From: Obrimoposthia wandeli
Lineage: Eukaryota
Assembly: GCA_977020255.1 (NCBI GenBank)
Contig: CDROCS010001087.1
Location: 868,001 to 932,000, forward strand
DNA: 64,000 bases
Reading direction: 5' to 3'
Positions 1,815 through 55,094 of this stretch are shown here, piece after piece. A model generated the notes under the pieces. The model made no database searches. It saw nothing but the letters and a program-made list of their open reading frames with translations, and was not told the origin of the DNA. Within the stretch, counting starts at the first letter, position 1, and each line of letters begins with the position of its first letter. A program made the translations under genes and the position numbers.

Positions 1815-2870
1815 TCCGATTTCGTCGAGTTACCGGACGACAGCTGGATGGATTCCATCAATGAAGAGGACTTCCAACAAGCTACAGTTGGATTGCCTTC
1901 GTTAGATACTTCTTCTTTTTTTTTCTGATTATTTTTTAAAATTGTAATTATATATTTTTTATTTTTTATTCAGGAAATACCATGATACAGCCGTTGTCCG
2001 CTACGACAGCTGTGCCTCCCTTGTCGCGAGTGCCTACATCGATGTTTGCACGTCTTAGAGGTAATAAGTTTTTTAAAAATATTTATTTTTAATATATTTA
2101 TTTTAGCAGCATCATCATCTACAACAGCCGCTTCTTCGTCGGCAATGTCGGCTACTTCAAATGCAGCATCTACTGTCTCATCATCTGCGGTACCATCTAC
2201 TACAGCAGCGTCTACATCGGCTGCGATTGCCTCAACTGTTAATATAAATAGTTGTCTTCCCGTTCAATTAGGGGGAGGTTTGTCAGCGACTGTAGGAAGA
2301 AAGAGGATAAATTTCTTAATAAGGTCCTACCCAAAAAACGTAGAGAAAACTACTAATATAGAGTATCAACTAAATAATAAATATGTTATAGTTAAGGTGC
2401 CATTAGGAAATGAAATTTTATTAAACGTAGGTGTAGATTCAAATATTGAAAGTCTTTTAAAATCAGAAGTGACTAAATAAGGACAGGCTAAGGTTCAATT
2501 TTGCGCAACAGTGCAGTTTAAAATGTCAATGATGAGTCTAAAACTTGGGTAATTTCACATAAAGCAACTGTTTTCTATGATAATTATTAACAAAAATCTA
2601 GATGAAAAAAATGCTAATTTTAGCGAGTTAAGTAGTGGGTGGACTATAGTTAGAATTCATGATGTTAGCTTTGTTCTATCAAAGTTCACTGACATGATAT
2701 ATCTTTCGGGGAGTTCATACATTCCTTCACCTAGATCTGTTAGACTTTCGCGTTCCATTTTTAATGTACAAAACAGTGATTACCTTAACTTTCTGTATAG
2801 CATGTTGGTCATTCTCAAAAGGGTTGAAATTACTGAGCACAGATAGCGTGTCAGTGAATATATCATTTTT
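1815..2870 (+). pseudogene. 5' part of spliced Polinton PolB gene
   Basis: Introns at 1906-1973 (donor decayed to AT; GT in copy 2) and 2061-2106 join in frame: DDSWMDS..LPSL|GNTMIQ..RLR|AASSSTT..QLGGGL. Later YLSGSSYIPSPRS..FNVQNSD is typical of this PolB N-terminal region. Frameshifts and a stop are present. Confidence 0.8.
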
Positions 2871-2874
2871 TGTT

Positions 2875-3225
2875 GTTTCAAATATTGTTCCTTCAACTTT
2901 CTTACGTTTGTTTATATTATATTTTTGCTTCATTTTACGTTTAAATCCACTACCTTCTTGGCTTTCATTTGATTTACCTTTTCTAATCAAATTAGCAACG
3001 TCAGGTAAAACATTATCAAGTTCATTAAGTGCATGCTTCTTAAAAGTTGGTATTAGTTAATTGTCCTTAGATGAAAGGTAGTCCTTTCTTAAATTTGATA
3101 CAAATCGCCCGAGTCTCTTTAAAAGAGGAAAGGCAAATCTACCTAATGTTCTAAGACAACTGAATCCATATTGTTTACTAATAAAATATGGTAATTCTCC
3201 ACCTTGTTGGCTTTGACTATAGCTT
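2875..3225 (-). pseudogene. Polinton core/structural protein-like (QxGG motif, basic tail)
   Basis: Minus frame reads YSQSQQGGELPYFISKQYGFSCLRTLGRFAFPLLKRLG...*...SQEGSGFKRKMKQKYNINKRKK. It has one internal stop and follows the penton-like gene. Confidence 0.55.
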
Positions 3226-3617
3226 CACTTATTGCTGAATTCGCCATTTTGTTTTCTTAAATGTATTGTTAAACTTGTCTTGGCTCCGTACGTGAAATCT
3301 ATTAGTTGTCCGGAATCATCTCTAATATTTTCTTCAATATTGTTTATAGAAAAGAGAGCAATTGGCAGATACTTTGGTTGATCTATACGAATACCGATAA
3401 CGTCCCCAACTTTAGTTTGAGTTTGAGATATCCATATTGTTCTCAAAAGTGGAACTCGTAGTCCTCCTACAAGCGTTGGTTCTATTAAATTTATATAAAT
3501 ATATACATGATTTATACTACTTAAATATTTTGCCTTATTTTTAGCTTTAATGTTTTTAAATGTATGGGTTTCAAATGTATTTCTGTTTAAACTGAGGTTT
3601 TTAGCGAGTTTATCATC
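3225..3617 (-). pseudogene. Penton (minor capsid)-like C-terminal half
   Basis: VYIYINLIEPTLVGGLRVPLLRTI...PKYLPI...IEENIRDDSGQLIDF...LTIHLR matches the recalled Polinton penton pattern. Confidence 0.7.
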
Positions 3618-3790
3618 AAATCTTTCTACTACTGCTGCTTTGTACTGCGAAAACACCGAGTAGTGATTTATCTTATTTTGTTTAAATAATGATTGAACTT
3701 GCTTATTATAAAATTCTTTTCCTAAATCAGTTTGCACGTATGCTTCTCTGTATTTTCTTCATTTATAAAAAGTGAAATTTAAATAATGTT
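3618..3790 (-). pseudogene. Retroviral-like (rve) integrase fragment
   Basis: QTDLGKEFYNKQVQSLFKQNKINHYSVFSQYKAAVVERF contains the second catalytic D and the E of the DDE core. Confidence 0.85.
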
Positions 3791-3959
3791 TATATTCGAA
3801 GCCATTTAAGTTTTATTTTATTTCTAACAACAGATTTAATTAATTTATTCACTTCTTTTTTCTTAATGATTTTTTAAAATTTCTTAGACTTTACTTTACG
3901 TTTACGTTTCACTATCAACTTTTTAAAAGGCATTATAAATTTATTTTTTATAATTGTTC

Positions 3960-4617
3960 TCTATTTGTTTATAAACAGTTACTCCCTTAGAATTAAATAT
4001 GTCTGTTAAAACACATAAATCATCTGAGCAAGCTTGTGTAAAGTCAATAAATATATACCCATGTGCTTGTTTAGCAGCATCATGGAATGAATCAACTAGA
4101 AAGTTCTTATTTTGGGGAAATGTCTATCTGGCTACGAAACTGTTTGATCTCTAGGATTTTTAAATAAAATTAAGTAATGTACATTAAGATTTCTTGCCTC
4201 TGATGACCTCCTTAGTGAAAATGATTTTGAATGATAAATATAACTGTTACTTCACGATGTCTTGCAATCTTTGTAAATAAATTATTAAAGTCCGATTCCT
4301 TGTTAGCTTCCTGATACAAATCATCAATTATTATTACATCTTCTTTTATCAATCTTTCACACCAATTTGCATCAAATCATTCAATAAATTTTATTCCCTT
4401 CAACTTGCAAACTTCTGTTTTGTTTAATCCGCTTTACCCTCCTTCAACATGATGCCAATAAATATTTTTGAAACTAGAATTAAAAAGAGATTTATTTTGC
4501 AACAATTTACATACAAAATGTATCTTTCCACTTCCACTGGGGCCTATTTGAAATAAAGCATTATTATTTAGCTCCATTACATATACTCTTTTATTTTAAT
4601 ATTGTTTTTATTATCAT
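3960..4617 (-). pseudogene. A32/FtsK-like packaging ATPase
   Basis: Walker A GPSGSGK(I) at 4521-4544, Walker B DVIIIDD at ~4319-4340 and C-terminal HGYIFIDFTQACSDDLCVLTDIF; frameshifted. Confidence 0.85.
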
Positions 4618-4895
4618 AGAAGTTTCCTTATTGAAATGTACAATGTTAGAGCTATTGTAGATGAAATACAAAAATTAATCAATGAATATTTGGCTATATT
4701 TTTATTTATTTGTGTTTGATTTCTAAATTCTCGAATAACATGTGATTTAACCAATATTTCAACGTTATTTCTTGTTATAACATTATTTTTTAATTCTGAT
4801 AAAATTTCTTTACCCCTAATTTTTCCAGAAAATATTTTGTCGACAAGACAATCCATTTCATTGTTTATATTTATAGTATTATTCATTTGAAACAA
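4614..4895 (-). CDS. Small Polinton ORF with hydrophobic C-terminal segment
   Basis: Open 93-aa ORF between the TBP-like and ATPase genes; ends LINFCISSTIALTLYISIRKLL. Confidence 0.4.
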   Translation of the reverse strand: MFQMNNTININNEMDCLVDKIFSGKIRGKEILSELKNNVITRNNVEILVKSHVIREFRNQTQINKNIAKYSLINFCISSTIALTLYISIRKLL

Positions 4896-4952
4896 AAGGT
4901 TTAAAAGGGTTTGTTTAAAGAAAAGATAACAAAATGTAATAAGATATATTTT

Positions 4953-5420
4953 CTAAATCGAATCAACAATGTCTGGATATTCAAAATTTTTCAATCCCAA
5001 TATCGTAACTTTACTACTGGAAAATATATTTACACATAGCGATTTAAACTTCAAATAACTGAGAGCAGGAAAAATTTCCGGTTCAAACATGCACTCCACT
5101 TTCATTTTCTTTGCAATTTTATAAAGATTTATTTGTTTCCCGAGATTAGCTGAAATTGTGATTGATTGTATTCCAGTGATTCGAATTCCAAATGGTAAAT
5201 TGATCTGAAGCAAAGGTATTTTGCATCCCATAACACGACAACTTCGTAAAAGAATTTAAAATGAAAATAAAATAAAAAAACTAACCTGTGGCAAAAATAA
5301 GAACTGTGAAATTGTCAAACGAAACATCATCTTCTATTCTACATTTATAATTTATATTTATGAGTTTCAATAGACTAAAATTGTATTCTGTAAATTCTTC
5401 TTTATATATGTCTGAATCAG
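4953..5420 (-). pseudogene. TATA-binding-protein-like gene with one short intron
   Basis: Exon ..LININYKCR..TVLIFATG, then a gttag.. AT-rich intron (~5245-5286, acceptor degenerate), then CRVMGCK..QSITISANLG..FEPEIFPALSY..CVNIFSSSKVTILG. This parallels TBP YEPELFPGLIY..LIFVSGKVVLTG. Confidence 0.75.
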
Positions 5421-5620
5421 CTTTTTATTGCACATTTCTGGTAATTATCTTGCAAACCTATTATAATTGGATGATATATTTCTTCCAATCAATTTTGATT
5501 TTTTAATATAGATTTAGTCCAATCAAATTCAATGCTTTAGTTATATTAGTTATATGAGATTCATGTATTTGTTACAAATTAGTATAAAAGAATGCACCAT
5601 TGGAGGACAAATCATAATAA

Positions 5621-5971
5621 ATGCATTCATATCAAAGACAATTATCAATGATGTACGATAGCCAACGGATATTAAGCGGTGACGAAGATTTAGAAATGTT
5701 TGAAGAATCGGATAAGGATATGTATGAAGAAGTGAAACAATATCTCAAATACAAAGTCAGATTCTTAAAGAAGCCTCAACTGATTGCTTTAGTAAATCCT
5801 GTGACAATTGAAAGAAGAAAGTTCAGCTATTATCTATCAAATATTCAAAAACCAGATTTTCAATATCTTGAACAGAAAGTTGAAAAGGCAGTTCCGAATT
5901 TTACTTTCAATAAGAACGAATTTTATATCCGAGGAACCGATGCAGCATTTCTAGATGACTATGGAAGATAA
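5621..5971 (+). CDS. Hypothetical 116-aa Polinton accessory protein
   Basis: Uninterrupted ATG-to-stop ORF, divergent from the TBP-like gene; no family recognised. Confidence 0.45.
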   Translation: MHSYQRQLSMMYDSQRILSGDEDLEMFEESDKDMYEEVKQYLKYKVRFLKKPQLIALVNPVTIERRKFSYYLSNIQKPDFQYLEQKVEKAVPNFTFNKNEFYIRGTDAAFLDDYGR

Positions 5972-6268
5972 ATATATGTTGGTGCGTTTACAAAAAGGAA
6001 GCAATGGACTGTAACAATATGACTTTATGGTTACAAGAAAGAAAAAATTGGAACAAAGTTACCTATGTAGAAAATTAAACGTTCTCATATCCCTATGTTT
6101 TAACTTTTTACTTTCATTTTGCATGAATAAATTGTAATCGGTTTTATTCATTTTTACTATGTTTCTTTCATTTGGCAACTAATAATTAGTTTTATTTTTC
6201 ATAATATTTGTATCTTATATGTATTTTTTTTATAAACATTGTTTTTTAATCAATTTCCTTATTTTGGA

Positions 6269-6680
6269 ATGGATCTTCTTCTGAGATATGTAGGAAATTT
6301 TTATTATCCAGAAATAATTTTAAAAGGAAAACTATGTAATATATTAAAGAGGCATCAAATTATATGAGTTATGAATCCTGTGAAAATATCAAAAGTGGAG
6401 AATAAATATATCATCGAAATTTTAACAATATCTGATATTGATCAATTGAAAAATATTTTGGGATTTTACATTCTTGATTATGTATATGAAGGAAATTATT
6501 TTTAGCTTGAAACTGATCCCAGTCTGGCTTTTAGAGATGATCTAAGATATTTGATTGCTCCAATTTTAGATGAAGAACTATGGAATATTTCAATACGTCT
6601 CAATGGATATTTTGCTGACGACGGGAAAATGCTGCCTCTTTGGACTTTGAGTGAAGTCAATATGGTGTTTTATATATGAT
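6269..6680 (+). pseudogene. Terminal Polinton ORF (ILGFYI.DY..WNISIRLNGYFADDGK)
   Basis: Homologous to minus-strand 49958-50370; contains stops. Confidence 0.55.
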
Positions 6681-9631
6681 TTAATAAATGTTTTGAAAAG
6701 AATTTTGACTCGTATTTTGTATTTCTCCTCTAAATTATATAAATCTGACCTAGTTTTTCTTTCATAAATTATTAATCTCAAATCTTTCTTAAAAATAGTA
6801 GTAATATATTCACATAAACATATTATTTGAAATCTCGTCTGCGATTAGCCCGTGGGTCAATACGGTCTTCTGTGATCATCTCTAATAACCTTTGAGATTA
6901 GCGGTAAAATTCAAAGTAAAATAATTGGTATTAATTTTATTCAAAATATGAGTTAAAAAATAGACTTATGAATTTGTCATTTATAGTGATATGACACGAT
7001 ATATACATGTGTAGTTGTAATAGTGAGAGTTGGTGTGGAGGTATGTGTAGATGGATAAAATTAATGAAAAATTCTATAGCGACCGGAGGGCGCAAAAATG
7101 ATAGTCATATTCGCACCCGGAGGACGCAAATTGTCGTCGCCCGTGGGGTGCGTTGTGGCGGCCGCACTCCCCACCCCCATATGGAGATGACTTTAAACTT
7201 AACATTTTCGAATCAGCAAAATAATTTTAATCAAGCATTAATTAGCAGCCAATATAATATTGTTAACATGTATACTTTTTTCGCCATTTTTCATTTATGG
7301 ATAGTTTCTATATCATCTTCACTACTTTGTTCATGTTTACTTTTAAGCCTTATATTTAAAATTTTGTAAGTCGTGGAAGTTTAGCCTAGAAGTGACAATA
7401 GCATTCATAAACATTATGGGGGTTTATTTGAATATTTTTTAAAAACTTATTCTTCTTGTTTCACAATTAACTTGAGAATTAAATTTCTTATCAAAAATAA
7501 ATCCTTGATTATTTTATTGAATATTTTTAATTGTTACAAATTTTGGAATCCAACATAAATGAACTCTTTTTCTCCTATAAAGGAAGTTATTGAAGCAGAA
7601 ATCTTGTTCAAAAATTCTTCATAAAAAATTCTTAACAATATTTGCCAGAAACAATGTTAAATATTAGCTACCCAAAAACATAAACAGAAATATAAATAAA
7701 TCACATTTTTAAATTTGTACGTAATAATATTAAGTTTTCTAAGGGTTTTATAAATTTACGTAGTTTTAAACAATGTTAAATATAAAATCTACTTAATGAA
7801 AATATGTTTAAACCCTGATAAACAATGACAAAATAATTATTAAAATTCTTATTAAATAATTATAATTTTCATAATAGTATCAGTTTTAAACATATTTACA
7901 ATGTTAATTTAAACATGAATATATGAATATATTTTCAAATAATGGACATGAAGAGCAAATTTTTGCTAATCAAATTGTTAAGGATAATTTTAAAAAATTA
8001 AATATTATAAAAATATGTTATTTCTATCTTCCAATACTTCAGCTGTGAGATATTTGTTAAATATCTACTGTTTTATTTCATCTATTATATTTTCCGTTGC
8101 ACTGAAATTCTCCAAATATGAGTTTGAATTACTTGCAGCATATATCTGTATGTTTTCAGACCATAAATGATATTGAATTTCCAGTAGTCTAAATATAATC
8201 TTTATCAAATTCGTATAAATAAAATAAAAGTTGAACCCTGAATCACGCCATGAAGTAATCAATATTTTAAATATTATATATAGCAGTTGCTTTTCTTTTT
8301 TATATATAAGATGAATGACTTCTTTTTAAATGTTTAAATACTGCATTTTTACTTTCGGTTTATTTAAAAGACTAAATTTTAAAAGTTATTTTTGTCTCCT
8401 GGTTTTAACATATAAATGTAACAGTTGGTCTAGTTTAATTTTTTCCAAAACATGTTTTATTTTCAGTGTTGCAAATCTATTCAGAGTAGTTATTGGAATT
8501 AAATAGTTTTTTCTTGTAGTTCTATCACATCACCTATGACATTCAGATTTATTTCTAACGATTATTTAAGTGCATTAGAAAAATAATTTATTGTTATGGA
8601 AGATATACTTTTTTCTGGAATCTTTTTTTTTGTGTTTCCATTCAATTTTTTTATTATTTTAAATCAAAAGTAATTAAATTCGAGATCATATACTGATCAT
8701 AAGCAAAATAATTCATTAGTGTAAAATATATTCTTTAGTAATCAGTAAGTCAATAGTATATGTCACAGGCTGAATAAAATTATTTGAATTGAATAAATCC
8801 AGAAGAAACTTGGAGAAAAAATAACAATCACTCGTGGTTTATGGTTACCTGCAATGGCAAAATACTGGTCTGTATTAACTCTAATAAAGAGTTAAAAGGG
8901 AACGTCTAACATCACAAGCGCTTTTGTGATTGCAACAGCCATATGTCGCCCATTTGAGAAGGTTGCCAGCTGTTGTAAAGTTCTAGAAGAAGTGATTATA
9001 ACGAAAGGGTTCACTTGTTGCTCAGATTTTATAATAGTATTGCTGGAAAAAATCGAATGCCCGAAGATGAAAACGCAAATTTTAAATAAATTGAAGACGC
9101 AAATTGATTATTAAAATATATATTATTTTTAAATAAACGGTTTCCCTGAATTCCAACGAGTTCATTCATTTCTTTAACGTTATTTTTTACCGATTGTTTC
9201 GAGAGGAAATTTAATCTAATCCAATCCATTCATTTGTTCTTGGATTGGGAGTGTGATTTATGTATTTATAGAGTGTCATTCATTTATCTATAACACTTAA
9301 TTTATTTAAAACAGACGTATTTTAGTATACATTTAATTTATCCATTTTACATTTTGAAATTCGTTTTTAGCAAATAATTTCATAATCTCTTTTTGATACA
9401 TGATTTCCTATTTTGGATAACCATTTTTTTCACACATATGTCTGTTTTCTCTCAAAATTGATTAAAATATTTATTTATTTACACTGAATTCTCGAAATAC
9501 TGTTCTAAATATTCAAAATTATTTATATAATAATTTGACCAATAGAATATTTAGTATTAAAATATTTTACAATATCCGAATTATTCGTCAGCATCGGTTA
9601 TAAAACTAACACATCTTAAAAAGTATTCAAA

Positions 9632-11014
9632 ATGTTTCAACATAAAGACAATTTAATATTAGAAAATGTGTGGAATTCCTTTGACAATCCACAAAGTGAA
9701 ATCAAGGTGGAACTAGAATTAGAGAGCAATAATTTACAACAGATTGTAAGTAATTTTGTGGGAAAGGAAGTGATACCATTAAATGGAAATTCTACCAATA
9801 AGGAAAGTGATCAAGATGAAGACGAAATGGAAATCGATGAAAATCAGTTAACCGGAAACTGTGAATCTCCGTCAGAGGGCAATGCAGTTGTATTTAATTC
9901 GTTGAAAAATGGCATATATATGCGAGTAAATGAATTGTGGGAGGTGATAAAGTCGACGAAAATAGAGGATATTCACAAGAAGATACCAAATGGCGTGAAA
10001 GAATTTGTATTTTTTGTTATGAAAAATGACGTGAAAAGTTCATCTTCGACGTCAGGACAAACTTGCAACTTCCCGGATGATTGTGGAACTTGGGACCGCA
10101 GAAAGACTTCGTCAACGACATCTCAATATATCATAGACAAGAAAGGTCATATCCAAAGCGTGGATCTGATAAACGGTGTCTATGGAATCCATAAAGTACA
10201 AAACAAAGTTCACAGCTTCATTCCTCTTGAAGAACAACCGGATGAAATTATACAAATGTGTCGAACCTATTACAAGCTGGAGAAAGTACCACAATTATGC
10301 AAGAGAGTGACACGTCTAGAGATAGTTCCAACCTGTTTTCAGCTGGCAATTCCAAACATTGCCGTTGTGGAGTATATCGGGAGAATACCAAAGAACACAG
10401 TGGCAGAACAAGATATTGCAATAACATCTGATAAAGTAAGTCGGTCCATAAAGAAGCCACCGAGAAAACCACGTAAAAGGCCCGAACAACAATTTTTAAA
10501 AGTGGGGTTCATGATAAAACTTCTGTGTGACAAGTCCCACACAAACTTGGTTACTTTATCGCAAATTCCAAAAGGAATCCAAGAAAACTGTTTCCATGTC
10601 GTCAAGGATACTGCTGACCAAAATATTAACAATAAAAGCAAGTTGAACAACTTCAAGGACGAATGTGGCGACTGGGTCATAAAAGAGTCTTCGTCAACGA
10701 AAACCTACTACGACATGAGTAATATGAGCCGCATTTGCACCATACAGCGTCGGGGTGGTAAATTTGGGGCTTACCAGAAGGGCACACACATATTCGAGCC
10801 ATTCCAGATTCAGCCCCGCGAAGTACTGACATTGCAGCGTGTCTACTACAATCTTTGCGAAGACGACTCCGTTTACCAGAAGAGGGTCACACGATTCTTG
10901 GGGGTCCCCAAGTCAATGGGATTGTCACATAGTCCAGAAATCGCTTTAGTGGAGTATGCAGGTTGCCACCCCAATCCTGGAGACACTGCCAGGTCCAAGG
11001 TGGAACTCTTATAA
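9632..11014 (+). CDS. 460-aa protein with two tandem CG-1-like (Mutator N-terminal type) putative DNA-binding domains
   Basis: Intact single-exon ORF. It repeats IP.G..E..F.V...NF.D.CG.W...R.YY.L......KRVTR...IA.VEY.G, which parallels CG-1 P.G..F..F..DG..W...YY.......QRR.YW...IVLVHY. The family call is by eye. Confidence 0.65.
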   Translation: MFQHKDNLILENVWNSFDNPQSEIKVELELESNNLQQIVSNFVGKEVIPLNGNSTNKESDQDEDEMEIDENQLTGNCESPSEGNAVVFNSLKNGIYMRVNELWEVIKSTKIEDIHKKIPNGVKEFVFFVMKNDVKSSSSTSGQTCNFPDDCGTWDRRKTSSTTSQYIIDKKGHIQSVDLINGVYGIHKVQNKVHSFIPLEEQPDEIIQMCRTYYKLEKVPQLCKRVTRLEIVPTCFQLAIPNIAVVEYIGRIPKNTVAEQDIAITSDKVSRSIKKPPRKPRKRPEQQFLKVGFMIKLLCDKSHTNLVTLSQIPKGIQENCFHVVKDTADQNINNKSKLNNFKDECGDWVIKESSSTKTYYDMSNMSRICTIQRRGGKFGAYQKGTHIFEPFQIQPREVLTLQRVYYNLCEDDSVYQKRVTRFLGVPKSMGLSHSPEIALVEYAGCHPNPGDTARSKVELL

Positions 11015-13376
11015 TTGTTTAATCTAAAATTATAAACAGAATATTTAATATAAGTAAATTATAATAAAAACGTTTAGTGTTAAAATTTTGTGTTTCTGAT
11101 ATAAAACCGGATTTTTCTAATTGTGCATTAAAATCGTTAATGTAAGTTTTTTTTAAAATAATTTAACCCAATGGATTTTTTAATTAACCTATATAATTAA
11201 AAAATAATATTAAAACTTCTACATATGACATCAGTTTTTTTAAAACATTTTCATAATGCAATACGTCGTTGTTTCTCTTATAGGGACAACGAAGATAAAC
11301 CATCTCAGTTTACAAGTTTATTGCAAGAAAAATGTTTATTCTTAAATGTTTGATTATCGTTGGACTCGAGTTTTCACTGAAAAAAAAGATTAGTCTCAAT
11401 TAAAACCATATGGTAAAATAGATAATCTAGATATACAAATATCTTTAAAAATAAACAGATTTAGAACATATAATTCTCAGAAACACTTGTCCCATACTAG
11501 CCAATTCTAATAAAACTATTTGCATTTGATATAACAGAAACCTTAAGGAGATATTCCGTTCCAAAATGGACTTTATCCTTTATTTTACCTCAAATAAAAT
11601 ATATTTTTATTATATAGATTTTTAAATTAAGACGGTATCATTTCTGTTAGGTTTAGAGGAGAAAGTTTATAATTACATTCACAACAATCTTGTGAATTTT
11701 GCGAAGCCCTCAAAATTGACGAAACAGAAAATACAATCAACTTTCAATCAAAACACGGACAATTGAACAGGTGATGTAGACTCGCATGTATCGACAAAAA
11801 TATTTACGAAGTATAAAAATTTCTTTATGACTAAGATTTTGCCTTTGAGCATGTATCACTTACTAAAATATATCAATAATGTACATCAATTCAACTACGA
11901 TTATAAAACTGATGAACTGCCATTGTGCTGAAAGCAAGAAACTTGTAGATGCAAATCATCTCAATGGCACAGCAAAAGTCACTAACTTTTCTAAAGTTTT
12001 CTAACTGCGCATTAAAATCGTTAACGTAAGTTTAAAATTTGAAGTTTTTTTTAAAAATTTTAAATTTAACTCAATGGGCCTTTTAATTAGCCTACATAAT
12101 TAAAAATAATAATAAAACTTCTATACATGACATCAGTTTTTTCAAAACATTTCAAAATTCAATACGTTAATACGTCGTTGTTTCTCTTATGGGAACAATG
12201 AAGATAAATCATCTCAGTTTACAAGTTTATTGCAAGATAAATGTTTGATTATCAGACACAGTTGTATTTATCAAGAAAATACTTTAAGAAATAATTTTAA
12301 ATTAAACAAATTTATGTTTAGTTAAAAAATATTAGTATTTCTTCAGTAAATATGTGTATTTACACCAAAGAATAGTTTAATAAAACACTTGCTTGTAATT
12401 ACATATAAATAGTTATATTTGTTCATTAAAAGCACTACAACAATACATATTATAATGTATTTACAATCAAATTTCAAATACGTTTAAATTGTATGTAGAA
12501 AGTTTAAGTCTACAAAAGAAATAGCTATCTATCAAATTTCAAATAATTTTTAGTTATTAGAAATTTTATGACCTCATAGTTGAATTTATTTGTAAAATAT
12601 TTCAGTAAAATTCTGGTAAACATTACAAATTTTACAGTTTTTATTAGACTTGATTCACAAACACTGTCATAATACCATTAGATTTTGTTTAATTTCTCAT
12701 TTAAAACTTTTTTATGAGTTTAGTTTATTATTTGTATTTTAATATACAAATGATTACGTAAAACGTAATTCGCTGAATTAAGTATTTACGTTTTGATGTA
12801 TTGGCCAATTAGGGACTCATTGTTGAAAATGCACTTTAGAATGCTTATTGTGGGTTTGACTATATAATAACCAGACATTTTTTGAGACTTGTACTTAGTA
12901 TTATAAATAGTTTATGAATTTTAGTTTTTTGTTGTAAATTTATGCAGTGGTTGACGTCAGAAAAGAAGTTTCTTAGAGTAAATGCCAAGTTTTGTAGCCA
13001 GTTTTTTTGAGAGAAGAAGATTTGTGATTCAATTTTTTTTGGACAAATACAAAAAGAAGATATGTATTTATGCCCAATTGTTTAAACTTTTTAACTTGAT
13101 AAAAAATGTTCTTCAAATTAATTATGTTTCAGACACGAATCAAAGTAAGCCAGATACCTCAAATTATTAACATATGAAAGGGTATAGAACAGTATCTCAA
13201 TTTAATAACATAATCAAAATTCGATTTGAGTTGAGTAAAAAAATTAATATATAGTTGAATACAAAATGATCACCCACTATAATGTGCTACGCATGTAAAG
13301 GACCATTTAATGAGACTGATATGAATTTTTAGAAGTAAGAAGTTTACATCAATTTTTATATTGCGGAACAACGGGA

Positions 13377-36622: not shown

Positions 36623-37696
36623 TTATAAGAGTTCCATCTTGGACCTGGTAGTGTCTCCAGGATTGGGGTGGCAACCTGCATACTCCACTAAAGCGATTTC
36701 TGGACTATGTGACAATCCCAGTGACTTGGGGACCCCCAAGAATCGCGTGACCCTCTTCTGGTAACCGGAGTCGTCTTCGCAAAGGTTGTAGTAGACACGC
36801 TGCAATGTCAGTACTTCGCGGGGCTGAATCTGGAATGGCTCGAATATGTGTGTGCCCTTCTGGTAAGCCCCAAATTTACCACCCCGACGCTGTATGGTGC
36901 GAATGTGGCTCATATTACTCATGTCGTAGTAGGTCTTCGCTGACGAAGACTTTTCCATGACCCAGTCGCCACATTCGTCCTTGAAGTTGTTCAACTTGCT
37001 TTTATTGTTAATATTTTGGTCAACAGTATCCTTGACGACATGGAAACAGTTTTCTTGAATTCCTTTTGGAATTTGCGATAAAGTAATCAAGTTTGTGTGG
37101 GACTTGTCACTCAGAAGTTTTATCATGAACCCCACTTTTAAAAATTGTTGTTCGTGCTTTTTACGTGGTTTTCTCGGTGGCTTCTTTATGGATCGACTTA
37201 CTTTATCAGATGTTATTGCAATATCTTGTTCTGCCACTGTGTTCTTTGGTATTCTTTCGATATACTCCACAACGGCAATGTTTGGAATTGGTAGCTGAAA
37301 ACAGGTTGGAACTATCTCTAGACGTGTCACTCTCTTGCATAATTGTGGTACTTTCTCCAGCTTGTAATAGGTTCGACACATTTGTATAATTTCATCCGGT
37401 TGTTCTTCAAGAGGAATGAAGCTGTGAACTTTGTTTTGTACTTTATGGATTCCATAGACACCGTTTATCAGATCCACGCTTTGGATACGATCTTTCTTAT
37501 CTATAATATATTGAGATGTCGTTGACGAAGTCTTTCTGCGGTCCCAAGTTCCACAATCATCCGGGAAGTTGCAAGTTTGTCCTGACGTCGAAGATGAACT
37601 TTTCACGTCATTTTTCATAACAAAAAATACAAATTCTTTCACACCATTTGGTATCTTCTCGTGAATATCCTTTATTTGTGTGAAAACATATTTCAA
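36623..37696 (-). pseudogene. Second copy of the tandem CG-1-like gene, 5'-deleted
   Basis: Lacks the first ~110 codons and the original ATG (track start is TTG). The frame is open to the same stop, with 21 amino-acid differences counted over ~350 aa. Confidence 0.7.
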
Positions 37697-38139
37697 ATTA
37701 TTTAATGGTTATCCAAATTAGGTTATCATGTATCAAAAAGAGATTATGAGATTATTTGCTAAACACGAATTTCGGAATGTGAAATGAATAAATTAAATGA
37801 ATACTAAAATACGTATATTTAAAATAAATTAAGTGTTATAGATAAATGAATGACACTCTATAAATAAATAAATCACACTCTCAATCCAAGAACAAATGAA
37901 TGAATTATATTAGATTTCCTCTTGAAATGTACTATCGGTAAACGTTAATAATAACGTTAAAGAAATAAATTAACTCTACTTTCTCTTTTTCTTAAACTTG
38001 GATAGCCAATTTGGACATCAACCTTTATTGGCTACGCTTCATCAATATTTCAGGAAAAAAAATTGTAGACTTCTTTTATTTAAAAACATAAAACAATCAC
38101 CACAGCAACAAAAATATACCCACCTAATTGAATATTTAC

Positions 38140-48949: not shown

Positions 48950-49560
48950 GTAATTTCATTATGTCCATAAGCGCGGCTTCTATTTTTTCTCAATCAAATA
49001 GAGTTTGTCATCTGATGAGCTGAGAGCAGTCTTTTGAGTTATGATTGTGCATAGTTCATGATTTATTGTTCCAAATTTATTTTGTGGTATAGTATATGCA
49101 ATACCGTTTTAATACATGTCTAAATATGTTTGATGTACAACCGTTGATCTCTTAAGATTTACTTATTTTATTTATCTAAATCCATTATTTATACATTCTT
49201 CCTTCCGATTCATTTTTAAATAATCCTTCTTTACTATTAAATTCATTAGAATACAATGATCATTATTCATTATAACTTGACGTATCTAAAGATCCATCTG
49301 CAATCATTTGAGACAACAATTGATTTCTTAAATTAACACCTTTACATTCTAAAAAAGAAAGAAACAGTATCTCCGGCAACCATATTATTTGAACAATTAA
49401 ATAAAATTATCTGTAATTTTGTAAATCTTGATACTGAAGAGTATACATTCGTAATTTACTAAGGTCTAGTACAGCTTGGCCTATATAGTTTGGTCGATCG
49501 AGACAAATAAAGTCTTTTCTAAATAAAACCGCTATTAAATTATAATGAATTTCAATTGTT
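48950..49560 (-). pseudogene. C-terminal remnant of a second, diverged Polinton PolB
   Basis: ICLDRPNYIGQAVLDLSKLRMY..AGDT(V)SF..KTALSSSDDKLYLIEKNRSRAYGH. Confidence 0.8.
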
Positions 49561-49957
49561 CGTTGAAACATAGGTTAGTAGGTGGATGTGTCCGGTCTAA
49601 TCCCCCTGCCCCCGGGGATACCACTGTCCTTTAAAACTGTGCATGTGTGTGGAGTAAAATTTCGTGTATGTGTGTCTCCATTCCACCCAAAGGGGAAGGG
49701 GGGTCCCCAACCACATTTTTTTTAAATTTTACTTTGAAATTTACCTCGAATCTCAAAAGTGGTTAGAGAAGACCACGGGAATCCATATTGGCCCCGGCAG
49801 CTTATCACAGACGAGATTTCAAATAATATGTGAATATATTACTACTATTTTTAAGAAAGATTTTATATTTAGGTCAGATTTATAAGAGAAAAATTAGATT
49901 TATATAATTTAGAGGAGAAAAACAAAATACGAGTCAAAATTATATTCAAAACATTTA

Positions 49958-50370
49958 TTAAACATAAAACATCATATTGGCTTCACTCAAAGTCCAAAGA
50001 GGCCGCATTTTCCCGTCATCAGCAAAATATCCATTGAGACGTATTGATATATTCCATAGTTCTTCATCTAGAATTGGAGCAATCAAATATCCTAGGTCAT
50101 CTTTAAAATCCAGACTGTGATCAGTTTCAAGCTGGAAAGAATTTCCTTCATATACATAATCAGGAATGTAAAATCCCAAAATATTTGTCAATTGATCAAT
50201 ATCAGATGTTGTTTAAATTTCGATGAGATATTTATTCTCCACTTTTGATATTTTTACAGGATTCGTATAATTTGATGCCTCTTTAATATATTACATAGTT
50301 TTCCTTTTGAATTTCTTTCTGGATAATAAAAATGTGCTACACATCTCTTATCCATTCTAAAATAAGGAAA
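49958..50370 (-). pseudogene. Terminal Polinton ORF (homolog of 6269-6680)
   Basis: ILGFYIPDYVYEGNSFQLETD..WNISIRLNGYFADDGK. Confidence 0.55.
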
Positions 50371-50399
50371 CTGATTAAAAAACAATGTTTATGCATATA

Positions 50400-53300
50400 A
50401 GATACAAATATTTATGGGTATCAAGTAAGTTATCCCTAAACATTGCCGGTAATAAGTGATTATCTAAACTAACATTTTTACATTCTAAAAAGAAAGAGTC
50501 AGTGTCCTCAGCTGAGATTTTGATCTCACAATTGAATTCTTGTTGATATTTCTCTAATTCTATGTATTGAAGCTCATACATTCTGAGTTTAGAAATGTCT
50601 AAAACCGTTTGACTTATATAACAAGTCGATCGAGACAAATACTCTGTTTTCCTAATAACACTGCTACCAAGTCATCTGCAATTGTAAAACGACGCTTGAA
50701 GTTGTACTTGCTAGTATATGTTATTAGTTTACGGTCATCATTGCAAAACCGTAGATAAATACGTTTCCGCAAGTCCTCTACAGTTTTTCCGAAGATACTA
50801 TTACTTTTTACCTTGTAAAAATCCCGATCGAATTTGCTAGTGGCCAAATTACATTTTCTAGAATTCTTCTCAATATAGTTTTTAAACACAAAGTTTTGAC
50901 TGAAGCTTAAAGCACGATGGATTCGAGTGACTTTCGCTCCCAACTTTAAGTAGAATTGAAGAAGCCGCCAATGCACCACATAATTCAACTTGTCTTCATG
51001 GGTTAACAATAATTTCTTAACCTTTGAATTAGGTAGGCATTGATGAACAGGCGCTACTGGAAGATCACCTAATTTATCATGTACATTGGGAGGGATTTTT
51101 AAGTCAACCTCAACTAAGTAGCTGACGTATGATAAAACTGTATCAACAGTAGCCAAATCTGTCATAAACTTATTCAACTCTTCCTCATCATAAACCCACT
51201 TAAAGTTGGCATGAGATAGAGGTTGAGTAAGCGTCCACCCATACAAATTATTAATGTCGATGTACAGAATCTCCACGGATTGATTTTTGACAACATGATG
51301 TTTGTTGACAAAAGTCATTCCACCGTGTATACCATAATAATATATTTGATACATCGTGGGATCTTGCAGTGACTCGATATTAATATTAAGAGTTTTTATT
51401 GCCGTTACCCATGAAAGACCAGGTAAACTAAAGAAATGCATGGGATCTAGCCCATCTTCTGCTAAAGACATTAAACGAAAGGACTCAAAAACATCAACTA
51501 AAAGATAAATGTCTAACTACATATAATAAAGCATGTAATCTAGAAGATTTCAACAATTATTCTCCCAAAATGTACGGGCCTCATTATAGTCTTGAAGACT
51601 TACACCCTCAAATTAAGTTATGGTGGGATTTTTGTAGTATTTTCTAAATCTGCAAAGGTTTTCACAAATTTATACAGAAAAATCCCCTTATCATTAACCG
51701 AAGCTGGGAACACTGATTAGGTAATTGGCCATGCATTTAAAGATGCCGTTAAATTTTTTAAAGACCCGCTCAAAAACTGCAGAGAATCTATGAATCTTAA
51801 ACTGCAGAAATCAGTATATACAGTTAAAGATAAATATTTCTCTGAAGTTTGAGGTATACATGAAATTTCCCAAGAGCTTAATGTACACAACGCGTATTTA
51901 AGTATATGATGCAAATCATATCCTTTGAGATTATGAAACACGATGGGAATGCGTAGTTTTTTAGGTAGACGACGGCCAAGAATACAGAGGTTGCACTCCA
52001 CTCTCAAGTATCGTCCTATAACATGATCGTGATCTCTGACTAACTTAGACTGGGTTCCACACAAATAACATAATCTACAAGAATTAAAATTAATCCAGTC
52101 TATGCCTTTCATGATCATTGCTTGATTAGCATTAAGATCATACCACGGTTTGACAATTGTAGTTCCTAATTCTTCTGAGTTTAACATAAAATCTAAAATA
52201 CAATTTGGACCGGAAAATGTATGATACTGTGTAATATTGGGGCTTAAGAATAATAGGCCTGCCGAAGCCGGTATGTGAATACTCTCATACTGATCGTGCA
52301 ATGCTAGAATTGACTCAAAATCAAAATACACCCTGAATTCCACGGTTACGCATTTTGCCCAATACTTGAATTTTAAATCCTTATCCTTAGGCATGCTATA
52401 TAGCGTATTGTCATCAGGATTCAGTGAACATAATTTCAGGTGTTTGCTGTAAGATAGCTCGGATTGGAATCCATGCAAACATATATGACACCACTTACAT
52501 CTTATCGTAACCGGTAAGGCTCCATTATCTAAATTTAGAAGACGATCTAAATTGGGAATTGCAGCATAGTGGAATTTTTTATTATGTTCGAGCAAAATGA
52601 AGTTGACCTGAGTCTCCTCATTTTTGCTCCTATAAATTACATCTACAAAATGTTTTTTTTTAATTTCTTCATCTGTTACATTAACTGAGATATTAGTATT
52701 ATATTTGAATACATTAATATTCAAGTTATTAAGGTGTTCAAATCTTGATATCGCAGTTAATTTAACAGGAAAATCTATTCCATGATACTGCAATTCATTT
52801 AAAAAAGGGGTATATTTACTGACACGCTCTCTATGTTCAGTAATTACACCCCTTTTGAGGATGGCCAACACGCTATACAGAAAGCAAAGGTTATCACTGT
52901 TTTGTACGTTAACAATGGAATGTGAAAGTTGAAGAGATCTAGGTGAAGGAATGTATGAACTCCCCGAAAGATATATCATGTCAGTGAACTTTGTTAGAAC
53001 AAAGCTAACATCGTGAATTCTTACCAGAGTCCATCCACTACTTAACTCGCTATAATTAGCAATTTTCTTTCATCTAGGTTTCTTCCAATTTCAGTTACAA
53101 AATTATGATAGAAAACAGTTGCTTTATGTGAAATTACCCAAGTTTTAGTTTCCTCATTGAAATTTTTAAACTGCACTGTTGCGCAAAATTGAACCTTAGC
53201 CTGTCCTAATTTAGTCAATTTTGATTTTAAAAGACTTTTAATATTTGAATCTACACCTACGTTTAATAAAATTTCATTTCCTAATGGCACCTTAACTATA

Positions 53301-54337
53301 ACATATTTATTATTTAGGTGATACTCTATAGTAGCACCGTTTTCTCTACGTTTTTTTGGTGGGACCTTATTAAGAAATTGGCCTCGCCACTTTCTTCCTA
53401 CAGTCGCTGACAAACCTCCCCTTAATTGAACGGGAAGACAACTATTTATATTAACAGTTGACACAAACGCAGCTAAGATTGAAGGTGCTGCTGTTGGACA
53501 TGCTGCCGATGTTGAGGCAATCGCAGCTGATGTAGTAGATGCTGCTGTAGTAGATGCTACAGATAAATATATTTTTAAAAATTATTACCTCTAAGGCGTG
53601 TTAACATCGATGTAGGCACTCGCGATAGGGACGCATAGCTGTCGTAGCGGATGACGGCTGTATCAATGAATTTCCTGAATAAAAAAATTAAAATAAAATA
53701 TATATATTTAATTACAATTTAAAAAAAGAATCTGAAAAATAATAATTAAAAATACCTAATGAAGGCAATCCAACTGGAGCTGGAATGAAGTTATCTTCAT
53801 TGACAGAATCCATCCAGCTGTCGTCTGTTATCTCGACGAAATCGGATTCCTCGATGGTCTCCAACCAGGAGTTATCGCTCTATTGCTCCATCTCGAAATC
53901 TGACTGGGATATGTCGTTCATCCACTCATTGTTATTCATTTGAGTGGATGGGGCATAATCAGAAGACTGGAGACCAATCGCAGTACCGTAAACGGGTTGA
54001 TCGTCTGCAACTGGAATTGGAGTAGGTGCGGCCTGTGAATCGCGCACCAAATGTACGATATCCCTCTTCTTGTTGTTGGCCGTGAAACAGAATAGGTGAA
54101 CTCGATGTTCACCGAAGAAGTCTCGAAACTCCTTCTCCTTCATTGTTCTGCAGAAGGGGGAGGCAAAGAATTGAAGCTCGCAAGACTTTGTCCGATAGTA
54201 GGCAGACATTATCTCCATGCAGGACTCTCCTCCATGCGGAGCCAAAGCACCACAATATGCTGGAAACAGGATACAAGTAATCTGAAATAATAAATATTAA
54301 TAAAGAAATAATAAGTATAGATTCTTACCATAGGCAT
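50400..54337 (-). pseudogene. Spliced family-B DNA polymerase with embedded endonuclease-VII-like zinc module
   Basis: GSSYIPSP..NVQNSDNLCFLYS; VYFDFES; CYLC..RDHDHVIG..CNLC; IVFHNLKGYDLH; FIDSLQF; GLDP.HFFSLPGLSW; YIDINNLYGW; K..SNSIFGK; EDTDSFF. Introns at 54282-54328, 53675-53755 and 53557-53588. Frameshifts, stops and a 3' truncation are present. Confidence 0.9.
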
Positions 54338-54539
54338 TATTTAAAATATTGTCGGGGATTTTAATGAAGAAAGTGTTTGCTTATATACTAAAATTTATGC
54401 ACACATGCTCTTTTCCTATTGGATTAAAAAATTGAATTTTATTGAGAAGAATTGTTTATATATTAAATGGTCTAAAAAATTATTTTTTATTCCTCCAATC
54501 AAAATAATTATTTATAATTGAATGAAAATTATGAATTAG

Positions 54540-55094
54540 AAGAATTGTTTATCTACATGTCAAGTAATAATAAGATAGACTTAAACATTTTTTATATGCG
54601 CAATGGTCACCATGACTACGATATGGACAGCAAATATTTCGTGGAATTTTTAATAGATGATCACGTGAAATATTTAAAGTATTCAACCTCAATTTGGAAA
54701 AATATTTTTTTAAAGTCTTATACTTTTTGCCATCCATTTCATCTAAAACATAAAAAATTCAATTTTCAATATCAAAATTCAATTTTATTGTATCGAAAAT
54801 ACATATTTCACAAAAAGCCTTATGTCCTTCTTTCCATTTTAATAAATAAAAATAATAAGTTAGATATAAATTAGTAAATTTTTTCTTATAATCTAAACTC
54901 TTAAACGGGATATCTATTTGAAATATGAAAATCAATGGATGGAAAACGTCGCATACATCCATAATACACAATTCTTTTATAATATAATCACCATTTTTGT
55001 TAATGAAAGCCTCAAATTCTATGATATATTCCTGCATAATTACCCAAATTTGTAGCAAATCCAATTGTTTATAACGAAAATAACCATTAATCAA
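54540..55094 (-). pseudogene. DEDD/DnaQ-like exonuclease-fold accessory protein
   Basis: YIIEFEAF..YIIKELCI..K.TNLYLT..LKWKEG; after a frameshift, CPYRSHGDHCAYKKC. The family pattern is recalled, not searched. Confidence 0.5.

Follow-up and report, generated by a model that had tools for sequence, protein, structure and literature searches.

A TBP-like gene inside a Polinton raises the question of whether such an element encodes a transcription factor for its own promoters or has simply picked up a gene from its host. The copy that prompted this analysis lies in a 64,000-nucleotide stretch of the Obrimoposthia wandeli genome (contig CDROCS010001087.1, positions 868,001 to 932,000; hereafter the window), a eukaryotic, AT-rich genome of 1.35 Gb. 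Viral TBP mimics are established in herpesviruses, according to the available parts of PMC12529657, and TBP has been described in mirusvirus-like elements (PMC10675990, in part). Starrett et al. 2021 (PMC8502044) list TBP, as a label only, in the legend to a MELD-virus map (Fig. 5), so TBP in Polinton-class elements is not unreported. The accessible text of that paper holds no reduced fold, promoter word or intron, one of its supplements contained no match to TBP or TATA, and a literature search, mostly of titles and with few subscription journals, found no paper devoted to a Polinton TBP. The new elements here are the patchy distribution of an intron, a control family free of the gene and the mapping of residues to specificity positions. 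Whether animal Polintons are autonomous viruses, and how they switch capsid genes, are open questions on which the gene, here termed mini-TBP, may bear.

A decayed mini-TBP gene in the window

A first-pass annotation had assigned a TBP-like gene to 4953..5420. The gene is present on the minus strand, but its start-codon position is 5370 rather than 5420, and it extends from there to 4953. Both half-repeat motifs that had been quoted were recovered on that strand: TVLIFATG ends the frame 5424-5284, and CRVMGCK...FEPEIFPAL...CVNIFSSSKVTILG lies within the frame 5255-4956. The 3' piece (frame 4956-5255) matches the Pfam TBP family PF00352 with 41.8 bits (E 9.5e-11, cut-off 22.9), and its best matches among the sequences of solved structures are TBPs, archaeal ones first (top 2z8u, E 7.8e-11); the 5' piece on its own gave no match in a Pfam search. 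Exon 1, which encodes strands of the N-terminal repeat (5286..5370), is broken here, being 85 nt long against a modal 130 nt (45 nt shorter) and having no ATG at the start position, where 21 of the 30 closest copies (family A) have one. It is followed by a phase-1 intron of 40 nt (5246..5285) with a GT donor and, in this copy, a non-canonical acceptor. Exon 2 (4953..5245) encodes the last N-repeat strand and the entire C-repeat of the TBP fold, and it stops early, at 96 codons. The window copy is a pseudogene inside a deleted Polinton, and reading is open throughout in 6/30 family-A copies. Four sequencing runs (one sample, kind unrecorded) cover this stretch evenly.

A canonical TATA-type word, TATATAAAG, lies on the minus strand at 5400..5408, about 30-38 nt upstream of the start position, and is a candidate early promoter. 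In most family-A copies, the DNA immediately before the start codon (window 5375-5415) includes a 43-nt stretch with GT-AG bounds that holds TATATAAAG and could be a 5' UTR intron.

The gene had also been described as co-oriented with an ATPase, integrase and capsid cluster. This stands for a frameshifted A32-like packaging ATPase (3965..4586), a fragment of a retroviral-type integrase (3594..3737), a C-terminal fragment of a presumed minor capsid protein (3255..3512, a name that we assume from gene position) and a small gene that we take to be PZ-like (2877..3221), all on the minus strand. It fails for the major capsid gene, which is absent from the window copy, the element being deleted at the point where that gene begins in a sister copy. 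On the plus strand lie a piece of the element's PolB, from its N-terminal part (2367..2885), and orfX (5621..6088), a small gene divergent from mini-TBP that is linked to it in 18/80 metagenomic loci and has no Pfam or Atlas match. Terminal inverted repeats were searched for around the window copy and none was found. Window 3511-12852 forms a block of 9.4 kb with a second copy, 98.3% identical, some 16 kb upstream on this contig, and the 99% twin of the window mini-TBP copy belongs to this local duplication.

Mini-TBP is carried by many Polintons

A Pfam TBP search of the genome, in which 150 of 19768 candidates were scored, returned host genes as its top 10 rows and mini-TBP in all 20 further rows examined. 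At least five Polinton families (A-E) in this genome carry the gene. An ATPase gene lies within the 3.6-kb locus in 27/30 family-A copies and a Polinton core gene at 18/20 further loci, which bears out the assignment of the gene to Polintons rather than to DNA mainly outside them. Among the best 80 of 98 metagenomic loci, a core gene was found at 35, including 22 of the 30 that are at least 3 kb long; the remaining loci are mostly short or show accessory genes only. A search with an intronless protein of family B (L044:1306-1737, 144 aa) identified 43 of 50 candidates as relatives, mostly of 145-155 aa, and a profile search returned 63 clusters at E<=1e-30, its best 150 matches being mostly single-stretch relatives with about 15 ordinary TBPs. 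Many metagenomic Polintons thus carry a mini-TBP, of about 145-170 aa, and outside this genome the family comprises well over 100 clusters at 50% identity.

The elements share PolB, integrase, A32 ATPase, a double jelly-roll capsid and terminal inverted repeats with Polintons/Mavericks/adintoviruses and MELD viruses as these are presented in parts of PMC8502044. The family-B homologues of the window integrase and ATPase pass PF00665 (40.9 bits) and PF04665 (27.2 bits), while the family-B PolB gave no PF03175 match. A model of the major capsid protein of locus L108 matches the double jelly-roll capsids of PBCV-1, iridovirus and mavirus (E 4e-16 to 2e-15), and the family-A capsid protein is 59% identical to it. 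For the adenain-like protease, the match to PF00770 lies below the cut-off (E 0.007). Terminal inverted repeats with a 6-bp target duplication flank one family-B and one family-E copy, and one family-A region has inverted ends with flanks that do not match.

On five contigs (C3352, C518, C1363, C2657 and C3275), Polintons belonging to different families are clustered, either nested in one another or adjacent. In family C, an inhibitor-of-apoptosis gene with BIR and RING domains directly follows mini-TBP (L098:241-1143), and metagenomic relatives carry a ubiquitin-conjugating enzyme (L124:225-719) and a dual-specificity phosphatase (L103:4008-4316).

Mini-TBP is predicted to be a reduced TBP saddle

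The TBP fold proposed for the gene is upheld by profile matches above the cut-off of 22.9, the family-B protein reaching 63.8 bits against PF00352, and by a structural model. The AF2 model of this intronless protein (pLDDT 94, pTM 0.83) contains the TBP sheet and aligns with human TBP over 144/144 residues (Z 13.8, rmsd 2.5); human, yeast, plant and archaeal TBPs align at Z 11-13.8 and the best non-TBP fold at Z 6.5. The predicted likeness to cellular and archaeal TBP (PF00352; 7egb_P, 2z8u, 1cdw) is therefore a saddle over the whole length of mini-TBP. Cellular TBP has two helices per repeat, whereas the model has helices only at 82-86 and 130-143, which are the C-repeat pair, and mini-TBP is thus predicted to be a two-repeat saddle without the two N-repeat helices. 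A divergent group of longer TBP-like proteins (165-180 aa; L150, L154, L155, L157-L159, L161) seems to keep the first N-repeat helix, which suggests stepwise reduction.

Across 106 representatives of 50%-identity clusters, the most conserved positions are DNA-facing ones and the stirrup: N4 (82/88), F39 (100/101), R45 (101/102), M47 (106/106), E96 (104/106), F98 (105/106), N112 (104/104) and F114 (104/104). In a sequence alignment to host TBP, as distinct from a residue-level superposition, these would correspond to yeast N69, F116, V122, T124, E188, F190, L205 and F207, which parts of PMC12529657 give as contacts to DNA or TFIIB. Yeast N69, F116, F190, P191 and F207 appear to be kept, as does the acidic TFIIB stirrup (E94 in 94/106, E96 in 104/106). 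The intercalating Phe residues, for which inspection had been suggested, are apparently near-invariant in three of four cases, but no conserved aromatic aligns with yeast F99, one of the four in cellular TBP. Mini-TBP further appears to differ from cellular TBP at V71, V122, N159, V161, I194, V203 and L205, where family-specific, mostly polar residues are found (mostly N for V71, R for V122, S/T for N159, T/S for V161, N for L205), and at T124, which is replaced by an invariant Met. At the positions of I194, V203 and L205 mini-TBPs have R (71/106), C (73/106) and N (104/104); these three residues are the ones mutated in TBPm3, which changes the specificity of yeast TBP, and the N-repeat of TBP contacts the 3' half of the TATA box (both from parts of PMC1636458). 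The DNA face of mini-TBP would thus be conserved and remodelled at the same time.

A candidate late-promoter word precedes structural genes

The word TATAAAC(A) was first picked by eye from listings of upstream DNA and then tested. In 16 modules TATAAAC has 83 sense sites and 5 antisense sites; the sense count is above all 100 shuffles in 11/16 modules and is reached by no more than 5/100 in 14/16, enrichment being non-significant in the other two (L108, 6/100 shuffles; L150, 11/100). ATAAACA was the top de novo 7-mer in 13 modules, with 102 sites observed against 19.3 expected, 4 on the other strand, and occurrence in 13/13. The word stands within 120 nt before 21/22 ATPase starts and before 1/47 mini-TBP starts, 48/110 sites lie 20-59 nt before the next long ORF, and the peak, 29-45 nt before the next ATG, holds 38/110. 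On the PolB strand it is sparse, with 7 sites against about 5 expected in six elements. In the window, TATAAAC stands on the minus strand at 2910, 3342, 3788, 3967 and 4863 (span 2910..4869), and these five sites are candidate late promoters. Standing upstream of packaging, capsid and other structural genes, [T/C]ATAAACA may be regarded as a candidate late-promoter word.

Two simpler origins of the word were considered and rejected. A polyadenylation signal is ruled out by the location of 73/102 sites inside coding DNA and by the preceding base, which is mostly T. The amino-acid sequence as its cause is ruled out by codon choice, since within coding DNA the codons of the word encode 19/27 Ile-Asn pairs close to the following start, against 18/103 elsewhere, with 9% expected.

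A Polinton family of the same genome, F, differs in its ATPase and has no mini-TBP within its aligned DNA; TBP matches near its copies lie outside that DNA and were assigned to neighbouring elements. With 5 sense sites and 7 antisense sites where 12.6 were expected, the word is not enriched in the seven family-F copies, which represent one lineage whose genes have mixed orientations. Since the modules are related and the control is a single lineage, the co-occurrence of word and gene amounts to one contrast and may reflect ancestry. L182 and L183 were discarded as gene-free controls, as both carry mini-TBP (family E). Scans of IMG/VR with the ATPase gave 0 and 3 distant loci, and the three, a poor control counted ignoring gene strand, had no enrichment of the word. 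A canonical TATA word stands before 14/47 metagenomic mini-TBP starts against 5/22 ATPase starts, which makes the early-promoter step weak.

Proposed role of mini-TBP

On balance, mini-TBP is probably a factor, encoded by the element itself, that directs host Pol II to late promoters in a way analogous to herpesvirus ORF24, although we infer every step from protein to DNA. Transcription of the mini-TBP gene by host TBP and Pol II would come first, and the host spliceosome would remove the intron where there is one. The protein would then bind [T/C]ATAAAC(A) through its remodelled DNA face, with the changed N-repeat contacting the changed 3' half of the word, and its retained acidic stirrup would recruit host TFIIB and Pol II to the virion and integration genes. 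TFIIA, TAF1, Brf1 and Mot1 use the N-repeat surface of TBP, and loss of the helices there might free mini-TBP from the host regulators that bind to it. This would give the element an early-to-late switch resembling the one of beta/gamma-herpesvirus ORF24/UL87, achieved by one 16-kDa protein. On this reading mini-TBP should prefer [T/C]ATAAACA over TATAAAAG, and since both a protein and a site of 7-8 bp are named, the prediction is testable in vitro.

The main rival, an unlikely one, is that a host factor reads the word, either a forkhead protein or host TBP acting at a weak TATA variant, and that mini-TBP acts as a decoy or repressor, for example by titrating TFIIB or blocking host promoters. 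ATAAACA fits the forkhead consensus, and a retained acidic stirrup would be in keeping with a TFIIB sink. A C(-25) variant of the TATA box can be bound by host-type TBP, to go by the title of structure 1qn3, in which wild-type TBP was crystallised on it; the literature search found nothing on TBP binding TATAAAC. Against a host factor, however, other forkhead words are not enriched (GTAAACA 14 against 10.2 expected, ATAAATA 24 against 27.9, GTAAATA 17 against 14.1), canonical TATAAAA is under-represented (24 against 39.6 expected), and the word is strand-specific and clustered near starts. The DNA face also appears to be conserved beyond the needs of a decoy.

More doubtful still is the proposal that mini-TBP is a DNA-bending architectural protein serving replication, integration or packaging, with the word unrelated to it. 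The gene adjoins PolB or orfX in many elements, and the modelled protein is without surfaces that cellular TBP uses for other transcription factors, both of which would suit such a role. Retention of both stirrup glutamates argues against it, as does the position of the word before genes and not at element ends.

The late-promoter reading can be set beside known viral systems. According to the available parts of PMC12529657, herpesvirus ORF24/BcRF1/UL87, which acts at TATT late promoters, shares with mini-TBP a viral TBP fold, TBP-like Phe residues and a polar DNA face, including polar residues for V122, V161 and L205; it differs in its 752 aa, its own Pol II-binding domain, five viral partners and lack of the acidic TFIIB residues. 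Mini-TBP would instead be a bare saddle that keeps these acidic residues and has neither an N-terminal Pol II-binding nor a C-terminal DNA-binding domain of the ORF24 type. BcRF1 is a weak fold match (E 3.5e-3). Herpesvirus vTBP has a private TATA-like word before late genes, while mini-TBP elements have a candidate word whose dependence on the protein is conjectural. Nucleocytoviricota and mirusvirus TBP-like proteins also share a virus-borne TBP fold, with 25 BFVD matches at E<=0.001. The only match of an IMG/VR search with the mini-TBP alignment was a full-length TBP on a large-virus contig (L101), which, unlike mini-TBP, keeps both repeats. Nucleocytoviricota and mirusviruses mostly encode their own RNA polymerase; no gene for a polymerase of RNA type was seen in the 12-15 kb mini-TBP elements.

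More tentatively, and perhaps a little short of an even chance when taken as a whole, an entire lineage of 12-15 kb Polintons may run a virus-like early/late programme with the smallest known TBP-type factor (16 kDa), its specificity re-engineered to redirect host TFIIB and Pol II to [T/C]ATAAACA, evading host TBP regulators and having arisen independently of ORF24 with converged changes in the DNA face. Were this so, a self-encoded TBP and a matching word would give these elements a regulated late phase with no need of a helper giant virus, and mini-TBP, as a naturally occurring minimal TBP, would reveal what initiation can spare of the fold.

Mini-TBPs form a clade apart from host TBP

The host carries ordinary TBP genes and paralogues elsewhere in its genome. 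The window piece shares 13/32 residues with the C-repeat exon of host TBP and is 29% identical to an intronless host paralogue over 98 residues. In a tree of the C-repeat (87 columns; 27 of 39 mini-TBP inputs retained, the exon of the canonical host TBP being too short to include), mini-TBPs lie together on one side of a branch supported at 99/97, separate from the eukaryotic, host and archaeal rows. The separate host genes and this clade confirm the early judgement that the gene is not host TBP. The row closest to them (P0219) is from a contig of 1 kb and uncertain source, labelled viral by eye, and the tree does not place the source of the family among the sampled rows. That mini-TBP was captured from a host, intron included, and is carried by the element as a passenger that does nothing for it, would suit a pseudogene in the window and the few family-A copies open throughout, but is highly improbable and already largely refuted by the several families here and the many clusters elsewhere with their invariant residues, by the separate clade and by a host TBP gene that is uninterrupted at the position of the mini-TBP intron.

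The host TBP set is itself expanded (L031-L040; contigs C238, C968, C60 and C1092), with two head-to-head TBP genes, a divergent one containing introns and two intronless TRF-like genes, and there are 12 TFIIB/BRF-domain matches on 6 contigs.

A patchy intron

A DNA search in which 40 of 5430 candidates were scored supplied the 30 family-A copies that were aligned. The donor is GT in 29/30, the acceptor AG in 27/30 and both are canonical in 26/30; lengths run from 34 to 50 nt, with 39-40 nt in 24/30, and the exon frames join in phase 1 inside the Gly codon of an F-x-T-G turn. These bounds and the junction, shared by sister copies, support the claim that the gene has an intron of its own. Each copy has on average 2.33 indels per 100 nt of intron, and none has a length divisible by three; the corresponding rate for exon 2 is 0.15, and poly-T slippage inflates the intron rate. 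A GT-AG intron of comparable length but unrelated sequence interrupts the same codon in families C and D and at the metagenomic locus L145, whereas the gene is continuous in families B and E. That the 40-nt stretch is a decayed AT-rich insertion rather than an intron could draw on the non-canonical acceptor of the window copy and on the four runs, among whose listed joints no spliced read was seen, but it is scarcely credible given GT-AG in most copies, the concentration of indels in this stretch and unrelated introns at an identical position elsewhere.

Among the best 80 of 98 metagenomic loci, from a search that favours continuous genes, 49 have a continuous gene (one re-read by eye), 1 has an intron and 30 are unclassifiable, so that the intron is missing in most mini-TBP relatives. 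A mini-TBP tree (106 columns) neither supports nor rejects a single origin. A capsid tree built from 14 rows places L145 together with two elements that have no intron (95/98), and a single origin is rejected when intron-bearers are held together (p-AU 0.005; 0.009 with a D-like capsid, of unchecked intron status, included). The intron-bearing elements do not form one clade, which implies repeated loss, parallel gain or exchange of the gene between elements, and the patchy intron is a record of one of these within a virus-like element. By pattern match, the start codon of the protease is also followed by a short GT-AG stretch in 8/9 elements, which fits nuclear Pol II transcription.

Other features of the window

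A second Polinton fragment at 49004-55022 has a PolB and an exonuclease-like gene, with a terminal repeat starting at 49577; its PolB (51720-53069) passes PF03175 and is 93% identical to that of a family-A copy carrying mini-TBP. Near-identical ORFs of 464 aa with an internal repeat lie in opposite orientation at 9620-11011, where a Pfam search gave no match, and at 36623-37708.
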